A stretch of 64,000 bases of DNA from an uncultured Gammaproteobacteria bacterium (lineage in GTDB: Bacteria > Patescibacteriota > Microgenomatia > UBA8517). The stretch spans positions 31,285 to 95,284 of the forward strand of contig CAZPLB010000002.1 in NCBI GenBank assembly GCA_964587425.1, read 5' to 3'. Position 1 is the stretch's first letter. The number at the start of each line of letters is the position of its first letter. The notes under the pieces are model-generated. The model made no database searches. It had not been told where the DNA came from and was given only the letters and a program-made list of their open reading frames with translations. This document shows positions 37 to 16,071 of the stretch, piece after piece. The translations under genes and the position numbers were made by a program.

Positions 37-3000
37 TCAAATCTTTGCCTCCTCCAAAATTTGTGCAATGGTGTGGGACAGTTCCTCACTCCATGAAATC
101 CCTTGTGGGAAAGTAACCTTTTCATCCTTCCCTTCAAAAAGGAGAGTCACTTTCTGTGTACCAGGATTCTCCAAAAATACCTTCTTAATTTCTTTTAATT
201 TATCAATGTCAGTATTCTTTGGTATTCTCACAAAAAATAGTGCATCTTTCTGTGAGGCATTTTCCTTGGTGAAAACATTCTCTACAATTAAATTAACCTC
301 CTCATCTCGAACATCCACTCTTCCGGATACTAGGATTGGTTTTGCCTCACTCCAAATCTCAAGTGTATCTTTGTAAATTTTGGGGAAAACCACGAGATTC
401 AGCGTTCCAGTCCCATCCTCCATTTTTACAAAAGCCATAGAGGCTCCGCTTTTCTTGGTTACAACGTTTCTAACTTCACTCACTAGCCCTGCAATCTTCA
501 CAGTGTCTTTGTATTCATTTTCTGTATTCAATTCATCAATCTTATGTGTTGCAAAATTAAGTAGGTTGCCAAGAGTTTCAGACATTGGTTTTGCCGAAAG
601 TGAAAGCCCAAGTAATTGTCTCTCAAGGTTTTCAATTTCACCCTCAGTAAATTCATCCATATCAATAATGAAAGTCTGTGAACTCTCGGTTAATTTTTCA
701 GAAAGTTCGCCAAATAAATCCTGTTGAGATGTAGCTTTCTTTGGTTTTACTCTTTCACGAATTTCATCAATAGAAGCCAAAATCGCAGCTCTTTTACCAA
801 ATGCCGAGAAAGCTCCAACTTTAATAAGGCTCTCCAATACCCTTTTATTAATTCTCCTGGCATCAGTTCTCGAAAGGAAATCAACCAGAGTCAAAAATCT
901 TCCCTCATTTCGAACAGTTAGTATTGCATCAATTGCAGCCTCTCCAACATTTTTAATAGCAGATAGTCCAAATCGAATTGCTTCGCCATTCAAAGATTTC
1001 TCATCCTTCACTATGGTAAAACCAACAACACTTTCATTAATATCAGGAGGTAAGACATTTATTCCCATTCTTCTGCATTCGCTAATTGCGGCCGAAATTT
1101 TGTCTGTGTCCCCACTTTCACAGGTCAAAAGTGCACACATATAGGGGACTGGGTAGTTGGCCTTCATATATGCAGTTTGGTATGAAACCATACCATATGA
1201 AGCTGCATGAGCCTTGTTAAATCCATATGCCTGAAATGGTTCAAATAATTTCCAAAGGGTATCTGCAAAATCCTGCGTCTGTCCATGAGCTACAATTCCA
1301 GTTGTGAATTTTTCCTTCTGTGCAGCCATCTCTTCAGGAATTTTCTTACCCACTGCTTTTCTGAATTTATCTGCTTCCTCCCAGGTATATCCTGCCAAAT
1401 CCAGTGCACAAAAAAGAAGATCATCCTGGTAAACAATAAGTCCATATGAAGCACCAAGAAACTTTTCCATTCTGGGATCTATATATTTAACCAAACTAGA
1501 ATCGTTTTTTCTTTTTATGTATTCAGGGATAACTGCAATTGGCCCAGGGCGGTATAAGGCTACCATTGCCATTAAGTCTTCAACCTTGTCAGGTTTCAAC
1601 TCTTTGATATACCTTGTCATCCCGGAGCTAGAGAGCTGGAACACTCCCATGGTTTCCCCACGAGAGAGCATCTCAAATGTTTTTTTGTTGTCGAGTGGAA
1701 TTTCATGTAAATCAACGGTCTTACCAGTTCTCTCCTTCACTATTTCAATGGCAAGCCCTAAAATTGATAAATTTCGAATTCCAAGAATATCAAATTTAAT
1801 TAGTCCAACATCTTCGCATGCATGCATTTCATATTGAGTAATAACTTTCTCTCCAGATGGTTCTTTTTGAATTGGACTAAAATCTGTCATTTCGGTTGGT
1901 GCAACAACAACACCAGCGGCATGCACCGAAATGTGCCGTGCAGAGCCTTCAACATGACGGGCTAAATCCAAGATTTTCTTGCTGTCTGGATCTGTGTCGT
2001 AAAGTTCCTGAAGTTGCGGCGTGATCGCAAGTGCCTTTTCAATAGTAATTGGAAATCCTTGTTTTGGTGGAGGGATAAGTTTTGATATCCTATCTCCAAC
2101 TGCATATTCATATCCCAATACTCTTGCAACATCCCTTACTGACCCTCTCGCAAGCATTCTTCCAAATGTACATACCTGGGCAACCTTCTCTTTCCCATAT
2201 GTGTCAGTGATATATCCGATAATTTTATCCCTTTTATCATCAGCCACATCAAAATCAATATCAGGGGGGGATGGTCTATATGGATTTAGAAATCTCTCAA
2301 ACGGTAAATAATATTTAATCGGATCAACCGTGGTAATTCCCAAAACATATGAAACCAAACTCCCAGCTGCTGACCCTCTCGTATTTGTAATAATCCCCTG
2401 TTTCTTTGTCCAACTAGCCAAATCCATATCAATTAAAAAATATGGGGCATAGCCCTTGGCATTAATAATCCCTAGTTCATGATCTAACCTGTCAGTTAAT
2501 TCTTTAGATGGCTTTGGGAACTTTACTCGAAGTTTTTCATTGGCGAGTCGAACAAGGTATTCATCAGCCTTCTCATCATTAGGAAGAGGAAACTTAGGAA
2601 AGAACCATTTACCCAAGGTTGTTATTTCCAAATTGCACTTTTCTCCAATTGCTACAGTATTTTTAATAGCATCGGGAAAGTCTGGAAAAAGACCAATCAT
2701 CTCCTCAGGACTTCTGGCATAATAAGTAGGGGTATCAACCATTCTTATTCTCTTGGTTTCCCTAACTTGTTTCCCAGTTGCAACACACACAAGAGCATCT
2801 TGTGCACTTGCATCCTCCTTATTTATATAGTGTGCATCGTTTGTGGCAACTAGTGGAATTCCAAGTTCTCGAGAAAGCTTCACTATCTCAGTATTTACCA
2901 AAGTCTCAATTTCAGCTTGACGAGCTAACTCTGCCTTCATCTCGAGAGGCGCATTCTCAAGGTGCTTTGCATATTCATGCCTTTGAATTTCAAGATAGTA

Positions 3001-3510
3001 ATCTTTACCAAAAACTTGATTGAACCATTGAGCTGTTTTTTTTGCAGTTCCCAAGTCTCCATCAATTATGGCTCTTGCCACCTCTCCATTAACACAAGCC
3101 GAAGTGCAAATTAGCCCCTTGGAATATTTTTCAAGAATTTCTCTTTGAAATCTTGGTCTAAAATAATAACCCTCCAAGTGAGCAATGGAGGTTAGCTTCA
3201 TCAGATTTTTATACCCTTCTTCATCCTTAGCAAGAAGAAGTAGATGGTTGTAGTTGTATCTTTCTTTCTCAGGTTTCTCTTTGTGATCGTATAAAACTGT
3301 GTAGGCTTCAACTCCAATGATTGGCTTCACATTTTCTTTTTTTGCTCCTTTATAGAATTCAACAGCACCATACATTGTTCCATGATCTGTAATAGCTACA
3401 GTATCCATCTCCATTTCTTTGACTCGGTTCATCAACTTTGAAACCTTAGAAAGTCCATCAAGAAGTGAGTATTCTGTGTGTAAATGAAGGTGAACAAATT
3501 TTCCAGCCAT
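37..3510 (-). CDS. dnaE: DNA polymerase III alpha subunit (PHP domain N-terminus, 1157 aa)
   Basis: N-terminal PHP motif HLHLHTEYSLLDG..ITDHG, length and overall DnaE-like layout; ATG verified at 3510. Confidence 0.9.
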   Translation of the reverse strand: MAGKFVHLHLHTEYSLLDGLSKVSKLMNRVKEMEMDTVAITDHGTMYGAVEFYKGAKKENVKPIIGVEAYTVLYDHKEKPEKERYNYNHLLLLAKDEEGYKNLMKLTSIAHLEGYYFRPRFQREILEKYSKGLICTSACVNGEVARAIIDGDLGTAKKTAQWFNQVFGKDYYLEIQRHEYAKHLENAPLEMKAELARQAEIETLVNTEIVKLSRELGIPLVATNDAHYINKEDASAQDALVCVATGKQVRETKRIRMVDTPTYYARSPEEMIGLFPDFPDAIKNTVAIGEKCNLEITTLGKWFFPKFPLPNDEKADEYLVRLANEKLRVKFPKPSKELTDRLDHELGIINAKGYAPYFLIDMDLASWTKKQGIITNTRGSAAGSLVSYVLGITTVDPIKYYLPFERFLNPYRPSPPDIDFDVADDKRDKIIGYITDTYGKEKVAQVCTFGRMLARGSVRDVARVLGYEYAVGDRISKLIPPPKQGFPITIEKALAITPQLQELYDTDPDSKKILDLARHVEGSARHISVHAAGVVVAPTEMTDFSPIQKEPSGEKVITQYEMHACEDVGLIKFDILGIRNLSILGLAIEIVKERTGKTVDLHEIPLDNKKTFEMLSRGETMGVFQLSSSGMTRYIKELKPDKVEDLMAMVALYRPGPIAVIPEYIKRKNDSSLVKYIDPRMEKFLGASYGLIVYQDDLLFCALDLAGYTWEEADKFRKAVGKKIPEEMAAQKEKFTTGIVAHGQTQDFADTLWKLFEPFQAYGFNKAHAASYGMVSYQTAYMKANYPVPYMCALLTCESGDTDKISAAISECRRMGINVLPPDINESVVGFTIVKDEKSLNGEAIRFGLSAIKNVGEAAIDAILTVRNEGRFLTLVDFLSRTDARRINKRVLESLIKVGAFSAFGKRAAILASIDEIRERVKPKKATSQQDLFGELSEKLTESSQTFIIDMDEFTEGEIENLERQLLGLSLSAKPMSETLGNLLNFATHKIDELNTENEYKDTVKIAGLVSEVRNVVTKKSGASMAFVKMEDGTGTLNLVVFPKIYKDTLEIWSEAKPILVSGRVDVRDEEVNLIVENVFTKENASQKDALFFVRIPKNTDIDKLKEIKKVFLENPGTQKVTLLFEGKDEKVTFPQGISWSEELSHTIAQILEEAKI

Positions 3511-9778: not shown

Positions 9779-10186
9779 TCAAGAATGAAATTCCGACGCA
9801 GGGACACCAAAAACCCAGGCCAATACAGTAAAAATTATCAACCCAATCAAAAATGTAATAACTGCCGCAATCATACACGCTACTAAACCATTCAAAACAG
9901 AAAGAACCAGGCGCTTCTTAGATTTGTGAGGCAGGTTTTTATAGGTTAAGAACACAACAACAAAAAAATCATAAAAAGGTATCAAGAAAATAGAATACAA
10001 TATCGAATAGTATACAAATTCAATATTATCAACAACAGAATAAGTCTTAACTAAAGTTGAATAGTAATCGTAACCAACAGACTTTGCACCCTCTCCCCAC
10101 AGAATTTGAAAAAGAACAATTCGCAATATAAGTCCAGGTAATAAGAAGAATTTTACATATCTCCCTAAAATTTTATCTTGATTCAT
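9779..10186 (-). CDS. Small integral membrane protein, unknown function
   Basis: ORF with 3-4 predicted TM helices, ATG start verified. Confidence 0.4.
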   Translation of the reverse strand: MNQDKILGRYVKFFLLPGLILRIVLFQILWGEGAKSVGYDYYSTLVKTYSVVDNIEFVYYSILYSIFLIPFYDFFVVVFLTYKNLPHKSKKRLVLSVLNGLVACMIAAVITFLIGLIIFTVLAWVFGVPASEFHS

Positions 10187-11964
10187 TTCAGTAATTTCTC
10201 GAATTCTCTCAAACTCAAGGTATTAATTATATCATTCCCTGTTGCCCAACCTCGTCTTGCCACACTTATTCCCCACTTCATATTATCCATATTTTCAAGA
10301 TGATGAGTATCTGTATCTATTGTCATTTTAACTTTTCTTTTGACTGCGTCATGTACCAAGCTATCTGGCAAATCAAGGCGGGCGGGGTCTCCATTAATCT
10401 CAACCCAAATATTCTTTGCAAGACAAGCATCAAATATCTTCTCCCAATCAAGATCTACTCCCTCGCGTTCATTTAATTTGCGTGCTGTAGGGTGAGCAAA
10501 TATTCTCACTTTTGGATTATCAAAAGCTTTCAAAACCCGCTTCGTCATTTCATCACGACTCAAATCAAAACTAGAGTGAATCGAAACCAATGCAAAGTCC
10601 AAAGTTTCAAGACCTTCAGTAGGAACAGGCAAGCTTCCATCAGGCAAAATATCAATCTCGAGGCTATTGAATACTTTAAATCCTCGATTGTTTTTCTCTT
10701 TTGAAGTTGAGTAATTTAATTCGTCAACAATTTCACGCTTTCTCTTTAATAGTTTCACAATTTCACTCGCATTATGTTTTCCTTTGCTTGGATTGTGTTC
10801 AGAAAAGGAAATATATTCATAGTTGAGCTCAATTGCTCTTTTCACGATATCTTTCATGGAAGCTGATCCTATGTCATGACTTGTTTCAATATCAAAGTCA
10901 GAGTGGATATGAAAATCTCCTTTTATATCTTTCAATTCAACAAGTTTTGGAAGTTTACTTTCTAAAGCCAGTTCAATCTCGCCAGTATCCTCTCTCATCT
11001 CAGGTGGAATATAATCCATCCCTAAAAACCTGTAAAACTTTTCCTCATCAGAAAATTCAATTAGTTTTCTATTTTTATTGAGATCATATATTCCATAATC
11101 AGAGACACTAAGTTGGTGCTTCAATGCATACTCTCTCAAAGCAATGTTATGGTGTTTAGAACCTGTGAAATGCTGAAGTAAACTCCCATATGCCTGAGGT
11201 TTACACACCATCAAATCAATCTGGATGTTGCCAGGAATTATAATAGAGGTGCTGCGCTCACCCTTTTCTATAACTCTAGTTGCTCTTGGAAACTTCGTAA
11301 AGTGTTCAATTGTTTTATCAGGGTTAGTGGACAATGCCGATAAATCAATATCCCCTATCGTTGTCGCCTGACGCCGTAAGCTCCCAAGCATGTCAACTCT
11401 TTTGACTCCAGCATCTTTCCTTACCCACTCAGCAACTTCACTTGCAATTTCATATGCATACGGCAGGAGATGGCGGCTCGGTGGTTTCTTTTCATAGTCT
11501 GTAAGAGATTTTGATATCTTTTCTTGGGAATCAACTCCAAACCCTTCCATCTCTGCAATTCTCCCGTCAGTTATTGCTTTCCTTAAATCTTTCAAACTTT
11601 TCAACTTAAGTTCATTCACAAGTTTACTCGCAGTTTTCACACCAATCCCAGGTATTTTCATGAGTTCAAAAACTATTGGAGGAATCGTTTTGGTTAAATC
11701 ATCAAAGTGCTTTGACTTACCAGTCTTGAAAATATCACTAAGATGCTCTGCTATTGATGGCCCAATTCCAGGTACATCATCAAGCTTCCCTTCTTCCCAG
11801 AGATCCCTGAGTTCACTTGTTGCATGTTCTACAGCGTCCGCTGCTTTCTCATATGCAACTATCTTAAATTTGTTTAGCTTTTCATTCTGAAGTTTATATG
11901 CTGCAGCTACATCACGAAGAACTTCAGCAATCTCAACATTTCCCATTGTTTTTGAAGTCTTCAT
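10183..11964 (-). CDS. polX: DNA polymerase X family protein with C-terminal PHP phosphoesterase domain
   Basis: N-terminal Pol beta-like HhH/fingers region (GIGPSIAEHL, GIGVKTASKL) and C-terminal PHP motif DFHIHSDFD. Confidence 0.8.
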   Translation of the reverse strand: MKTSKTMGNVEIAEVLRDVAAAYKLQNEKLNKFKIVAYEKAADAVEHATSELRDLWEEGKLDDVPGIGPSIAEHLSDIFKTGKSKHFDDLTKTIPPIVFELMKIPGIGVKTASKLVNELKLKSLKDLRKAITDGRIAEMEGFGVDSQEKISKSLTDYEKKPPSRHLLPYAYEIASEVAEWVRKDAGVKRVDMLGSLRRQATTIGDIDLSALSTNPDKTIEHFTKFPRATRVIEKGERSTSIIIPGNIQIDLMVCKPQAYGSLLQHFTGSKHHNIALREYALKHQLSVSDYGIYDLNKNRKLIEFSDEEKFYRFLGMDYIPPEMREDTGEIELALESKLPKLVELKDIKGDFHIHSDFDIETSHDIGSASMKDIVKRAIELNYEYISFSEHNPSKGKHNASEIVKLLKRKREIVDELNYSTSKEKNNRGFKVFNSLEIDILPDGSLPVPTEGLETLDFALVSIHSSFDLSRDEMTKRVLKAFDNPKVRIFAHPTARKLNEREGVDLDWEKIFDACLAKNIWVEINGDPARLDLPDSLVHDAVKRKVKMTIDTDTHHLENMDNMKWGISVARRGWATGNDIINTLSLREFEKLLK

Positions 11965-11986: not shown

Positions 11987-12346
11987 CTACTTCGTCCGTG
12001 CATCAATAAAATCACAAACAATCTCCCTTATTTCCTCGGGCAAACCTCTCCAGTGAATAAGCATTATAACTTGTGCCTCACTTTTAACTCTAAGGTGAGG
12101 CATTTTCAAATCAAAAACATGAAGAACTTCTTCTGGAATCGGCATGTAAATAGATTTATCGCGATCGCTAATCACAACACATCCTGACTCCCTCTTAACT
12201 TCAATTATTCCCACGTATCCACTCGGCAAAAAATATTCTGTAAAAAATTCACTATCAGTTGAAGGACCAGAGTAAGCCAAAAATGTAGCAGATTCCTTTA
12301 ACTCAAATTCCCTTGGTCCAAATTCTGGCATAGTAACAATTAACAT
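11987..12346 (-). CDS. Hypothetical protein
   Basis: ORF only; track start is TTG, ATG candidates at 12346 or 12331. Confidence 0.35.
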   Translation of the reverse strand: MLIVTMPEFGPREFELKESATFLAYSGPSTDSEFFTEYFLPSGYVGIIEVKRESGCVVISDRDKSIYMPIPEEVLHVFDLKMPHLRVKSEAQVIMLIHWRGLPEEIREIVCDFIDARTK

Positions 12347-12400
12347 ATTAAACGAACTCAATTGGAGAATCAAATGAATTTATAGTAAAATACAGGTGTT

Positions 12401-12472
12401 GGCCTCGTAGTTCATCGGCTAGAACATACCCCTGTCACGGGTAAAAGGTGGGTTCGACTCCCATCGGGGCCG
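12401..12472 (+). tRNA. tRNA-Asp (anticodon GTC)
   Basis: Manual cloverleaf: acceptor GGCCTCG/CGGGGCC, D-arm GTTC..GAAC, anticodon stem TACCC/GGGTA with loop CTGTCAC, T-arm GTGGG-TTCGACT-CCCAT, discriminator G. Confidence 0.8.
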
Positions 12473-12477
12473 CATAG

Positions 12478-12897
12478 TCAAGTTTTTCTGAGGTAAAATT
12501 CGTTTTTCTTGAAGTTAAAAACAACTTCATCAAAGTAGTCAAAAAAACCTCGTCTTCCAAGTAGACCTTCTCCACTATTAGATACTTCATCGCTAAAAAT
12601 CACGGGTGCATTAAATTCAAAAGTATGCTTATCTTGAATCACTTTTAATTTTAATCCACAAACTTTTCCCTTCATTGGAGGTGCATCTTTTACTCCACCA
12701 AACGGAATTTCTTTTAGACGATTAAGATCTATTCCCAATAAACCCGCCAGTTCGGAGTGAAACACATTCGTAAATGCACCCGAGTCAAGCATCGCAGGAT
12801 AATTAAAAGCTACTCCTGTTGCTGGGTCTTCAACTCTAACCTCTAACATCGGAATTTTATCGTCTTTAATTTGAGTAAACTTGTATTTAAATTGCAT
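12478..12897 (-). CDS. Retropepsin-like aspartic protease domain protein
   Basis: MLDSGAFTNVF active-site D(S/T)G motif in a retroviral-type protease fold context, 139 aa. Confidence 0.6.
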   Translation of the reverse strand: MQFKYKFTQIKDDKIPMLEVRVEDPATGVAFNYPAMLDSGAFTNVFHSELAGLLGIDLNRLKEIPFGGVKDAPPMKGKVCGLKLKVIQDKHTFEFNAPVIFSDEVSNSGEGLLGRRGFFDYFDEVVFNFKKNEFYLRKT

Positions 12898-13084
12898 TAC
12901 CTACATTGGGGAGATACTTCGCGGGCACTTTATACAAAGTAGGAATTTTCACACCTTTCTTCACGGCAGAAGCATAAACTTGCTTTGCTGTTTTACCACT
13001 TGAAACAACAATCCTTTTATTCGGTTCTAATGCAACCCACTCACCTCCATATTTTTTAATTAGCAAAGATAAATTCTTAAACAT
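12887..13084 (-). CDS. DUF5678-like small protein (65 aa), upstream partner of the aspartic protease
   Basis: YGGEWVAL..VVSSGKTAKQVYASAVKKGVKIPTLYKVP pattern; 11-nt overlap with the protease start indicates co-translation. Confidence 0.45.
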   Translation of the reverse strand: MFKNLSLLIKKYGGEWVALEPNKRIVVSSGKTAKQVYASAVKKGVKIPTLYKVPAKYLPNVGNAI

Positions 13085-13162
13085 ATTCAGAAAAGCATGT
13101 GTATAGAATAATTATCACACAATTCAGTCAGCAAATCCACTACTTAGGTACAAATATCACAC

Positions 13163-14281
13163 TTACTTGTAAATAATCACCCCAGCTTGATTAAAAGTTG
13201 CCCACTTGTGATCAAATTGGCTTCTAGACCAATACACTTGCCCCACAAGTGAGTCATTCACAATTATCTGTGTTGGATTACTGGCTGACCCCACAAAGCC
13301 AACAGCAACGACTGTATGCTCCCCAGCAACCGCAAAAATATCTTTCCCACCAGATGTCTTCCAGTGTGTTGGTCTGCCGCTACTGCTATATACCCAAATA
13401 ATAACTGGGTTACCAGCAGAAATTGCTTTTGTTAATTTTTCAATATTTCCCCCTTGAAACGCTTCAGCCTTCCCATAATTTCTTGCAACCCTTTCAATCG
13501 GACCCCAGTAAACACCATATCCATCCCTCATTTGATTGCCATCCACATTTCCAACAAAGTGTTCATATGGATCTCCCCAGGTTCCGTCAATGTGAGGCGT
13601 ATTATCAACTCCAACCTGAGCCATTAGATCTTCTTCTGTTTTTGAAATACCTTTATAGGCAAGCGCCATACGGAGAGATGACACCTCACAGGAAAGTGTG
13701 TGCTGCTGCAAGTATGCAGGAACAGGGAGTTTGAAAGTTTGTGGTTTGGGGGCAACTGCAGCTACTGAATTCGAAGCAGTCAAAGCTTGAGCATTCTGTG
13801 TCTTGAAGGAAAACTGAACTTCATATGGTTTACTTTTCCGAATAGTATTTTCAATACCTACAATTTTGACAGTGTAGGTAGTATTTGCCTGAAAACCATC
13901 TTGGGGATAAAAAACTACTTTTCTATACAAATGTGTTAAGTAAACTGGATCTTCAAAAACCCATGTTCCAGGAACATCAGGGGTAATGCTTTTCTCCATA
14001 CTCCTGCGGCTAACTGGCCTGTCAAACTGCAAATATATTGGATCGGTTAAATTGATTTCGTCACCTTTTAAATTGCTTTTTGAAATTTCGGGAGAAGGAA
14101 GAAGCAGTAAACCAAGAAGTATAGCTGCCACTGCTACAATTGCCAAAGCTGCCAAGATAACTGGCTTCACCTTGCGTTTTGCCAAATAAACAGCAGCGAG
14201 TAAACCCAAAAAGACAGCAGTAAATGAAACTAAATAATCTGAAGGCAGAAGCGGGGTTCCCGCAACAGGATTGGTAAACAT
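13163..14281 (-). CDS. Membrane-anchored C39-like (BtrH-like) cysteine peptidase domain protein
   Basis: N-terminal TM helices, a beta-rich middle domain, and a C-terminal region with the Cys/His pattern of C39-like peptidases (..HTLSCEVSSLRMALAY.. / ..GEHTVVAVGF..). Confidence 0.5.
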   Translation of the reverse strand: MFTNPVAGTPLLPSDYLVSFTAVFLGLLAAVYLAKRKVKPVILAALAIVAVAAILLGLLLLPSPEISKSNLKGDEINLTDPIYLQFDRPVSRRSMEKSITPDVPGTWVFEDPVYLTHLYRKVVFYPQDGFQANTTYTVKIVGIENTIRKSKPYEVQFSFKTQNAQALTASNSVAAVAPKPQTFKLPVPAYLQQHTLSCEVSSLRMALAYKGISKTEEDLMAQVGVDNTPHIDGTWGDPYEHFVGNVDGNQMRDGYGVYWGPIERVARNYGKAEAFQGGNIEKLTKAISAGNPVIIWVYSSSGRPTHWKTSGGKDIFAVAGEHTVVAVGFVGSASNPTQIIVNDSLVGQVYWSRSQFDHKWATFNQAGVIIYK

Positions 14282-14305
14282 CTAACTGCTTTTATTTAAG
14301 CAGAT

Positions 14306-15391
14306 TTAAAGGCCGTGAAGCAAGTCTTTTGCCAAAGTAAAATCGGGGTTGTAACCAAGTGCAGCCTGAGCTTCAATTCTAGCCTTCTCAATTTCACCAA
14401 GTCCTTTATATGCCACAGCCTTCTCATAGTGTATTTCACCAAACGAATCGTTATACCAAAGGGCTAGATCAGCAGTTTCAAGGGCTAATTTGTACTCTCC
14501 AAGCTTATTGTATGTTTGAACTGGCTGGATTTGATACCAAAGCATGCGGTGTGGCCAACCCAAAGCCTTTGATTTTTCAAATGCTGTACGAGCCTGAGAA
14601 TACTCACCAAGTCCAAAATAGCTAGTACCTAAGTTAAACCAGGCATACATATCATTTGGGTTAGCCTCAGTTTCTCTCAAGTTTCGAAGAACTGAATTCT
14701 GGTACATAGTAGGCTCATCCCAGTTTTCTCCAACTATCGCTTTAACGATAGCTTCCTTGTCTGCTCTATATACAGACATAAATTCTCTGTTATATGGCTT
14801 CCACTGACCCTCATCCCACATTTCATATGGATATTTGATCCCAACACCAAAATACGAGTCATCTGCAATTAATACCCCCTCAGTATCATCAAACCCACGA
14901 ATAATGAGAACATGCCCAATATCCTCATTTGGGTGAAGAAAGTCTTCAACCACAACATACACCCCATTTGAGACTAATGTCTTTAGGGTCTTTAAATCTC
15001 CATTAAAAAGCACTTTGTTTTGAATACCATAATCGTTCTTTAGATAGGCTGAAATTTCACCAATAAACACATTTTTGTCATCTGAGCTTGTTCGAAGCTT
15101 AGCCTTGGTTTCCTCCTGGCTAACATTATAGCCAAAATACTGAAGGGTCATGGCAGTAGCTGCAGGTCCACAATTGTTAAAACTCTGTGGAATCCACTTG
15201 GCAGAAGGCAATTGGTAGGCACTTGGGGCTTCCTTAAATGGCACTGGAGTAAGGCTTAAACCTAAAACCTTGCCTAGAGTAGGCTTATTTTTAGCTTCAG
15301 GAGCACTTACATTTGAGGCCAATCCACTCAAAGCTAACCCAGAAATGAGTAAAATTGAGACCAAAAGCATGTATTTCTTTGTTTTTCTCAT
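14306..15391 (-). CDS. Secreted C39-like peptidase domain protein with C-terminal TPR repeats
   Basis: Signal peptide; NCGPAATAMTLQYFG catalytic Cys region and HVLIIRGFDD His region; TPR-like repeats (AWFNLGTSYFGLGEYSQA..). Confidence 0.55.
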   Translation of the reverse strand: MRKTKKYMLLVSILLISGLALSGLASNVSAPEAKNKPTLGKVLGLSLTPVPFKEAPSAYQLPSAKWIPQSFNNCGPAATAMTLQYFGYNVSQEETKAKLRTSSDDKNVFIGEISAYLKNDYGIQNKVLFNGDLKTLKTLVSNGVYVVVEDFLHPNEDIGHVLIIRGFDDTEGVLIADDSYFGVGIKYPYEMWDEGQWKPYNREFMSVYRADKEAIVKAIVGENWDEPTMYQNSVLRNLRETEANPNDMYAWFNLGTSYFGLGEYSQARTAFEKSKALGWPHRMLWYQIQPVQTYNKLGEYKLALETADLALWYNDSFGEIHYEKAVAYKGLGEIEKARIEAQAALGYNPDFTLAKDLLHGL

Positions 15392-15432
15392 ACCTATAGT
15401 TTACCAAGAACAGTCAAGTAGAATGAATTTAT

Positions 15433-16071
15433 TTACTTGAGCTCAACCACACTGACAGTTAATGCACCATCTTTGTAGTCAAAGATGAATTTAACAGGGT
15501 TTTCTTTGCTATTGGTAATATACAAATTAGACTGTCCGCTAGCCTCAACTGCACCAGGCAAGGCATAAATACCTACCCCATATTCCTTTGGAACCTCAGG
15601 AATTACAGCAAAATCGTGATTATGAGGGGCAATAGAAGTGAGCCCAGCATCTCTGGCTGCCCAGTTTATTAGTGAGGCCAAATGGCAAACTCCATCCCCC
15701 ATTAGGTATCCATCAGACTTAAATCCGTCAGAATAGTTAAAATGGGCATTAGTTGTTTTCACAACATTTCCATCATATTTAGCCGCAATCTGGTCATGGA
15801 AGGCAAATTCCTCTCCAGGCTTGAGCTCAAATTCATATGTAAAAGGCTTTTCAACCTCATCCCAAGCTATTTCACCACGGTTTTTGACGCTCCCACGCAT
15901 ATAGCTAAGGGTCAATAAGATGTTGTCCTTGAAAACAGTGTTTACAGAAGGAACCGCATACCTAGTCTCAAGAGACATGGTACGGCTAGCTATAGGCATG
16001 ACAGGTGACCCAGGTGTTATATTCACTGGGGTAAAAGCCAAGGCCATAAGTACTAAAAGTGTAGGTAACAT
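15433..16071 (-). CDS. VanW-like domain protein
   Basis: GDGVCHLASLINWAA resembles the VanW/YoaR GGGVCQ.S..LYNAA core motif; signal/TM N-terminus. Confidence 0.45.
   Translation of the reverse strand: MLPTLLVLMALAFTPVNITPGSPVMPIASRTMSLETRYAVPSVNTVFKDNILLTLSYMRGSVKNRGEIAWDEVEKPFTYEFELKPGEEFAFHDQIAAKYDGNVVKTTNAHFNYSDGFKSDGYLMGDGVCHLASLINWAARDAGLTSIAPHNHDFAVIPEVPKEYGVGIYALPGAVEASGQSNLYITNSKENPVKFIFDYKDGALTVSVVELK

Follow-up and report, generated by a model that had tools for sequence, protein, structure and literature searches.

A retropepsin-like aspartic protease encoded with DUF5678 as a conserved two-gene operon in bacteria and archaea

DUF5678 and a retropepsin-like aspartic protease are the products of an autonomous two-gene operon in which the small DUF5678 gene comes first and both genes are inherited together. 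The operon was analyzed in the window, i.e., the whole stretch of 64,000 nucleotides of DNA, and both of its genes are conserved well past chance level. Among the functional options, the genomic evidence leans towards DUF5678 as an inhibitor- or antidote-like partner.

The window locus and its surroundings

A first-pass annotation of this DNA had described a 65-aa DUF5678-like gene that overlaps a 139-aa gene by 11 nt, and the ORF coordinates (Table 1) agree with it. Its term "co-translated" holds in the sense of translational coupling between two separate ORFs but not in the sense of one fused product. The gap to tRNA-Asp, given there as 6 nt, measures 4 nt, from the protease stop codon (12478) to the tRNA-Asp 3′ end (12473). 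In addition, the module does not start at the tRNA; it is the 3′ end of the module that abuts tRNA-Asp, in convergent orientation. The DUF5678 gene and the protease gene are each present in a single copy within the window. A consensus scan of the minus strand gave no full -35/-10 site for the pair.

Table 1. Features of the DUF5678-protease locus, in window coordinates.
Feature	Coordinates	Strand	Basis and remarks
tRNA-Asp(GTC)	12401-12473	+	ARAGORN; convergent neighbor, judged to lie outside the module
DUF5678 gene, 65 aa, ATG start, first of the pair	12887..13084	-	ORF and Pfam PF18929
Retropepsin-like (clan AA) aspartic protease gene, 139 aa, ATG start, second of the pair	12478..12897	-	ORF
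Overlap of DUF5678 stop region and protease start, 11 nt	12887..12897	-	ORF coordinates; tight operon coupling
Codons of the catalytic triplet D38-S39-G40 (GAC TCG GGT)	12778..12786	-	Read from the sequence
Codons of L112-L113-G114-R115, hydrophobic-hydrophobic-Gly motif	12553..12564	-	Alignment; retropepsin equivalence presumed
Candidate extended -10 element TGTGATAAT	13111..13119	-	Putative; 26 nt upstream of the DUF5678 ATG

A second assembly contains a 9.4-kb copy of the region, in which one flank encodes LysM, VanW, and two C39-like peptidases and the other a hypothetical gene, PolX, LemA, and an M48 peptidase. In the window, two tandem Peptidase_C39_2-like genes adjoin the module and are followed by a VanW-domain gene (13163-16071, minus strand). 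The C39_2-like protein of 372 aa combines a membrane segment at its N-terminus with a Big_5 domain, and the one of 361 aa has faint TPR matches; together, these genes appear to encode a group of proteins that are exported or belong to the cell envelope. Beyond tRNA-Asp, the minus strand encodes a hypothetical protein of 114-128 aa with no Pfam or NCBIfam match (11987-12373) and a PolX-type polymerase of 593 aa with a faint PHP-domain match (10183-11964).

The tRNA gene had been read as an integration site, which would make the pair the cargo of an element integrated at tRNA-Asp, forming a small genomic islet. The distance of only 4 nt is in keeping with such an islet, as is an imperfect inverted repeat of 18 nt on either side of the pair (12474-12491 and 13087-13104). 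However, a tRNA beside the pair is found in none of the 32 related loci scanned, the region contains no direct, att-like repeat of the tRNA-Asp end, the genes called in the 9.4-kb copy of the region include no integrase, and the composition of the pair region is ordinary (35.6% GC versus 36.3% for the window). The inverted repeat was rejected as marking the ends of an element and is ascribed to chance, because eight relatives carry no comparable flanking repeats; the same search returns nine inverted repeats of this kind within 1 kb. The integrated islet is highly improbable and effectively already refuted, the position of tRNA-Asp next to the pair being coincidental.

Collections of mobile elements and defense systems were also searched. 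The window protein as query has no matches among plasmids (PLSDB) or phages (INPHARED), patterns derived from the close-relative alignment have none in IMG/VR, and there is no match in PADLOC and no significant match in PHROG. These negative results are weak because the collections hold few CPR or DPANN elements.

The two proteins

The 139-aa protein is a retropepsin-type aspartic protease by its fold, its motifs, and the family links of its relatives, as the first reading of the sequence had it. It harbors the sequence MLDSGAF (i.e., M-L-D38-S39-G40-A41) and, toward its C-terminus, LLGR, which we take from clan AA knowledge to be the hydrophobic-hydrophobic-Gly motif of retropepsins, the counterpart of ILGR/IIGRN. 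D38, S39, G40, and LLGR are invariant in 26 close relatives; across 99 diverse relatives, D38 and G114 never vary, and conservation of S39 and G40 is at least 90%. There are 28 close homologues (E down to 5e-56), the closest of which are found in Woesebacteria-type CPR genomes, and a profile built from 26 of the close homologues detects 622 cluster representatives at E ≤ 1e-3, nearly all of them 120-160 aa long. In the predicted structure, the protease adopts a single-lobe β-barrel that can be superimposed on the retroviral proteases, and this model is confident and complete without a partner.

The window protease itself lies under every curated cut-off. It scores 14.6 bits (E = 0.055) against Asp_protease_2 (PF13650), below the gathering cut-off of 24.3 bits, and matches no NCBIfam model. 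Among the 99 diverse relatives, 81 match Asp_protease_2 (a count of profile-detected relatives at E ≤ 0.01), 60 match gag-asp_proteas, 19 match RVP, and 29 match TIGR03698. On these profile scores, membership of the window protein in Asp_protease_2 is transitive only, through its relatives.

Neither a signal peptide nor a membrane segment is apparent in the sequence of the window protease, so the enzyme is presumably cytoplasmic. Retropepsins are homodimers in which each subunit provides one aspartate, and by analogy the active form of the window protease would be a homodimer with one Asp per subunit. A gag-pro-like frameshift fusion of the two ORFs was considered and excluded, because the two ORFs do not hold a constant frame relation from one relative to the next and the protease has retained a start of its own, MQFKY, which is conserved.

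The 65-aa protein is, judged by its profile match, a bona fide DUF5678 member: it aligns with positions 2-49 of the 49 positions of Pfam PF18929 (E = 4e-10) and scores 39.8 bits, above the gathering cut-off of 23.2. Of the Pfam families named at first pass, DUF5678 is confirmed for the small protein, and the match of its neighbor to Asp_protease_2 falls below the gathering score. The window DUF5678 has the core motif GGEWVAL and the C-terminal tail KVPAKYLPNVGNAI. This tail is the best-conserved stretch in the close clade, where K52, V53, P54, K56, Y57, P59, and G62 are invariant; the pattern KVPxKY[IV]PYIG is characteristic of the window's clade, and the tails of other clades differ. A single-sequence AF2 model (pLDDT 62) suggests a small β-β-α-β core followed by the clade-specific tail, a layout that may be considered reminiscent of antitoxins whose tails fill the toxin active site.

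No PDB match for DUF5678 was found; Foldseek and profile searches of the PDB returned noise, including designed-repeat artefacts. In the Pfam and PDB searches and the low-confidence model, no DNA-binding domain is recognizable. The net charge is not conserved, with pI values from 4.5 to 10.4, which sets DUF5678 apart from typical autoregulating antitoxins, and a conserved charge that would hint at nucleic-acid binding was accordingly dismissed. A ubiquitin-like reading of the C-terminal glycine was likewise rejected because the terminal glycine is restricted to one clade. Fusions of DUF5678 and the protease ("Rosetta stone" proteins) number zero among 296 collected family proteins.

Conservation, decay, and notable relatives of the pair

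Searched from the protease side by a pattern scan with one genome per species, 29 loci were obtained, and a DUF5678-like ORF stands beside the protease in 27 of them. It lies directly upstream in 26 loci, and in L023 it is convergent and overlaps the protease 3′ end; the loci that lack it encode a membrane-anchored protease paralogue (L017) and an N-terminally truncated protease (L024). According to the record titles, some of which are probably mislabels of MAGs (e.g., "Gammaproteobacteria"), the 29 loci belong to CPR bacteria, Pace-, Woese-, and Nanoarchaeota, Thermoplasmata, Acidobacteria/Terriglobia, Solirubrobacterales, and Planctomycetia. The small upstream ORFs match Pfam DUF5678 at E ≤ 0.01 in 25 of 28 cases, and when the eight most divergent were checked singly, seven were above the Pfam cut-off and one (L032) was just below. 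Individual look-ups of close and distant protease homologues gave DUF5678 directly upstream on the same strand in 9/9 cases.

Searched from the DUF5678 side, the protease is directly behind DUF5678 in 27 of 32 metagenome loci, a census of the close clade only because the broad DUF5678 alignment is too diverse for pattern scans. The five exceptions are two contig ends, one 33-aa protease remnant, and two orphans with altered C-termini. Together with the protease-side counts, these figures bear out the pairing proposed at first pass, which is strongly conserved across phyla and in both prokaryotic domains.

At most loci, the junction between the two genes ranges from a 4-nt overlap to a gap of a few nucleotides; a few junctions seem larger, depending on the choice of start codon. 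The neighbors of the pair are diverse and include NUDIX, FtsW, LpxC, NurA/HerA, the his operon, YchF/S6, groESL, and dnaK/dnaJ, and no third recurring gene was found near the pair among the loci compared. Pairwise identity among the DUF5678 proteins tracks that among the proteases (Mantel r = 0.81, equaled in 0 of 2000 permutations), as expected of a jointly inherited unit, and, on inspection of the alignments, each major taxon has its own sequence type of the pair.

Where the pair decays, the decay appears one-sided, with the protease going first. At L012, L050/51, L035, L038, and L060/62, DUF5678 is intact and the protease ORF next to it is shortened, broken into parts, or truncated at one end or the other. 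The protease carries D->N at L031, and it is reduced to a remnant or gone, leaving DUF5678 orphaned, at L044, L058, and L059. These amount to about 7-10 events, some of which are perhaps assembly errors. The sample contains no intact soluble protease without DUF5678, although the DUF5678-side search is blind to copies in which DUF5678 itself has decayed.

The two loci without DUF5678 are distinctive in other respects. The L017 relative (2767-3330) is a protein of 187 aa with an N-terminal hydrophobic segment, a membrane-anchored layout like that of APRc; it alone among the intact family members sampled lacks DUF5678 upstream. The truncated protease of L024 (2238-3291, a Planctomycetia MAG) is missing the DSG region and lies directly downstream of a toxin-antitoxin-type pair of DUF433 and DUF5615 (PIN-like) genes.

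In one CPR lineage (L068, L070, L072, and L077; about 290-2950 in each), the pair always follows groES-groEL on the same strand, and the genes downstream of the pair differ. Between groEL and DUF5678 lies a GC-rich terminator hairpin, followed by a -10-like element, TGGTATACT, about 8 nt before the DUF5678 start codon. Co-transcription of the pair with groESL was rejected on account of these two intervening elements, which indicate instead that the pair is its own transcription unit in this lineage; the short distance between TGGTATACT and the start codon suggests a near-leaderless transcript. Both genes are intact throughout the lineage, in which GroEL identity goes down to 83% and that of the pair is 51-69%. 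With both genes kept intact beside groESL, the pair in this lineage resembles a cellular function under stable inheritance more than a restless selfish element. Elsewhere, the pair lies downstream of dnaK in L006 and L052, and in L006 dnaJ comes next.

Other relatives occur in unusual settings. P0166 (745 aa) carries a retropepsin-like domain (PF13650, E = 5.5e-7) N-terminal to a P-loop NTPase; the STAND-like match of the latter is weak (E = 5e-4) and does not reach the cut-off. STAND-type proteins usually bear an effector domain at the place where P0166 has its protease domain, which would make the protease the effector head of a STAND-type NTPase. In an uncultured archaeon (L022:1410-4911), the pair separates a NurA-domain gene from a HerA (DUF87) ATPase gene; NurA and HerA genes are adjacent partners as a rule. 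Small retropepsin-domain proteins of ~100 aa (e.g., Saci_1895), which may or may not belong to the present family, are reported in association with type III-D CRISPR loci in Sulfolobales (PMC3973734). A Nanoarchaeota contig (L025:2383-4959) contains a 1061-bp tandem repeat with two full copies and a partial third. The repeat unit comprises the 3′ end of a 601-aa nucleotidyltransferase-domain gene and the whole DUF5678-protease pair, and the two copies of the pair are identical over 623/623 nt, as the result of a recent segmental duplication or else of faulty assembly.

Possible roles of DUF5678

To our knowledge, free-standing prokaryotic retropepsin-like proteases are numerous and almost uncharacterized, with roles known only for APRc, RimB, and RloA, all of which differ from the window protease in localization, specificity, and partners. 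APRc (RC1339) of Rickettsia conorii is a membrane-anchored, autoprocessed bacterial retropepsin-like protease (PMC4140852; PDB 5c9b/5c9f). In contrast, the window protease, with about 19% identity to it, has no membrane segment or pro-region, and no DUF5678 partner has been described for APRc. RimB and RloA of Pseudomonas (PF05618/DUF785; PMC11957791, PMC11957051) are bacterial retropepsin-like proteins that work with operon partners. RimB trims poly-glutamate as part of the RimABK complex (PMC11957791), and RloA is secreted (PMC11957051). The window protease belongs to the poorly studied prokaryotic single-domain clan AA peptidases (COG5550/TIGR03698 "AF_0612 family"; Asp_protease_2), which are likewise about 120-150 aa long and, as in the window family, have the D-S/T-G-A and hydrophobic-hydrophobic-Gly motifs and occur in bacteria and archaea. 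A partner gene has never been reported for these peptidases, of which "little is known" according to a 2009 survey (PMC2642776).

Retroviral proteases (MEROPS A2: HIV, FIV, RSV, and EIAV PR) are parts of polyproteins, whereas the window protease is free-standing with its own start, has extra N-terminal strands, and has no frameshift link to the upstream gene. The RVP domain of Ddi1 is fused to a ubiquitin-like domain; DUF5678 is too short for such a domain and has no ubiquitin-like match. Operon-encoded cognate inhibitors of proteases are exemplified by the staphostatin-staphopain and Spi-SpeB systems, in which the inhibitors are small, cytoplasmic, co-transcribed, and specific for their protease. 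The DUF5678 operon shares with them a small cytoplasmic protein co-transcribed with a potentially harmful protease. However, the staphostatin and Spi systems involve secreted cysteine proteases, their inhibitor gene lies downstream, and their inhibitors have no sequence or fold relationship to DUF5678. A literature search for DUF5678 tied to a protease, or for a retropepsin-like protease tied to an antitoxin or toxin, found no paper in the library covered.

It is plausible, and is put forward tentatively, that DUF5678 is a cognate partner that restrains the cytoplasmic protease in an inhibitor- or antitoxin-like manner. In such a scheme, the protease would be active as a homodimer, and translational coupling would provide DUF5678 in an amount roughly equal to that of the protease. 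DUF5678 would bind the protease and block its activity, and its clade-specific tail might occupy the substrate cleft or sit where the two subunits of the dimer meet. The protease would be released once its partner is lost or degraded, much as with operon-encoded inhibitors or type II antitoxins, and the cassette could be either a selfish toxin-antitoxin pair or a stress-triggered cellular protease. Restraint is favored because modules in which the antidote comes first show this gene order and coupling and because harm is to be expected from a cytoplasmic retropepsin that escapes regulation. It is further favored by the one-sided decay, which leaves no intact soluble protease without DUF5678, by the antitoxin-like core and tail of DUF5678, and by the place of the truncated L024 protease next to a DUF433/DUF5615 pair and of the P0166 protease domain at the N-terminus of an NTPase.

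The broader proposal that the pair is a widespread toxin-antitoxin-like or protease/inhibitor system, with a cytoplasmic aspartic protease as effector and DUF5678 as its inhibitor, is possible but somewhat unlikely. The likeness to type II toxin-antitoxin systems comprises a small gene followed by a larger one, overlapping or abutting ORFs, autonomy with variable neighborhoods, a patchy spread across domains, and earlier decay of the second gene. In contrast to those systems, DUF5678 has no recognized DNA-binding antitoxin domain, and plasmid or phage copies of the pair were not found. A classical toxin-antitoxin reading is weakened because DUF5678 has neither a DNA-binding domain nor a conserved charge, because PADLOC and IMG/VR are without matches as are the plasmid and phage collections, and because one CPR lineage keeps the pair after groESL. 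Among known toxin-antitoxin families, no aspartic-protease toxin is found in PMC2701414, nor is there one matched in PADLOC.

The strict co-occurrence and tight coupling fit equally with DUF5678 as an adaptor, activator, or folding/dimerization helper (ClpS-type or a pro-region in trans), in which case the pair would be a cellular proteostasis device. Stable vertical retention by groESL in one CPR lineage and a dnaK…dnaJ cluster in another are consistent with such a device, as are the empty searches of mobile-element and defense collections and the involvement of partner proteins with characterized bacterial A2-type peptidases (reviewed in PMC11957791). However, of roughly 40 contexts, only 2-3 independent ones place the pair beside chaperone genes, and groEL is set apart from the pair by a terminator. 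For a helper and its protease, either gene could go first, but only protease-first decay is seen, and the model of the 139-aa protease is confident and complete on its own. An adaptor or helper role is thus considered unlikely.

DUF5678 could alternatively be a dedicated substrate or precursor, as the first-pass annotation had raised among its options, such that the protease trims the tail or processes DUF5678 into a mature small protein or peptide. Conservation within the close clade peaks in this tail, and from clade to clade the tail changes along with the protease, as might be expected of a substrate. The altered tails of orphan DUF5678 copies are compatible with an inhibitor as well as a substrate. 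However, genes for export, modification, or a receptor do not recur in the neighborhood, the tail lacks conservation between clades and so reveals no common cleavage site, and the coupling would suggest roughly equal amounts of the two proteins, not an enzyme with excess substrate. Processing of DUF5678 by its neighbor is judged improbable, although this role and that of an adaptor or activator both deserve serious consideration.

One large subfamily of retropepsin-like proteases is nearly always encoded with DUF5678, and this pairing provides the first functional context for DUF5678. If DUF5678 is indeed an inhibitor, the pair would be the first toxin/antidote-type module built on an aspartic protease, and DUF5678 would gain a function, that of a natural protein able to inhibit a member of the enzyme class to which HIV protease belongs. 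Such a module would represent a class of toxin not known in prokaryotes, present in many genome-reduced CPR bacteria and DPANN archaea. The frequency of the pair among CPR and DPANN organisms, whose genomes are tiny, would then point to a role valuable enough to be retained despite strong genome reduction.
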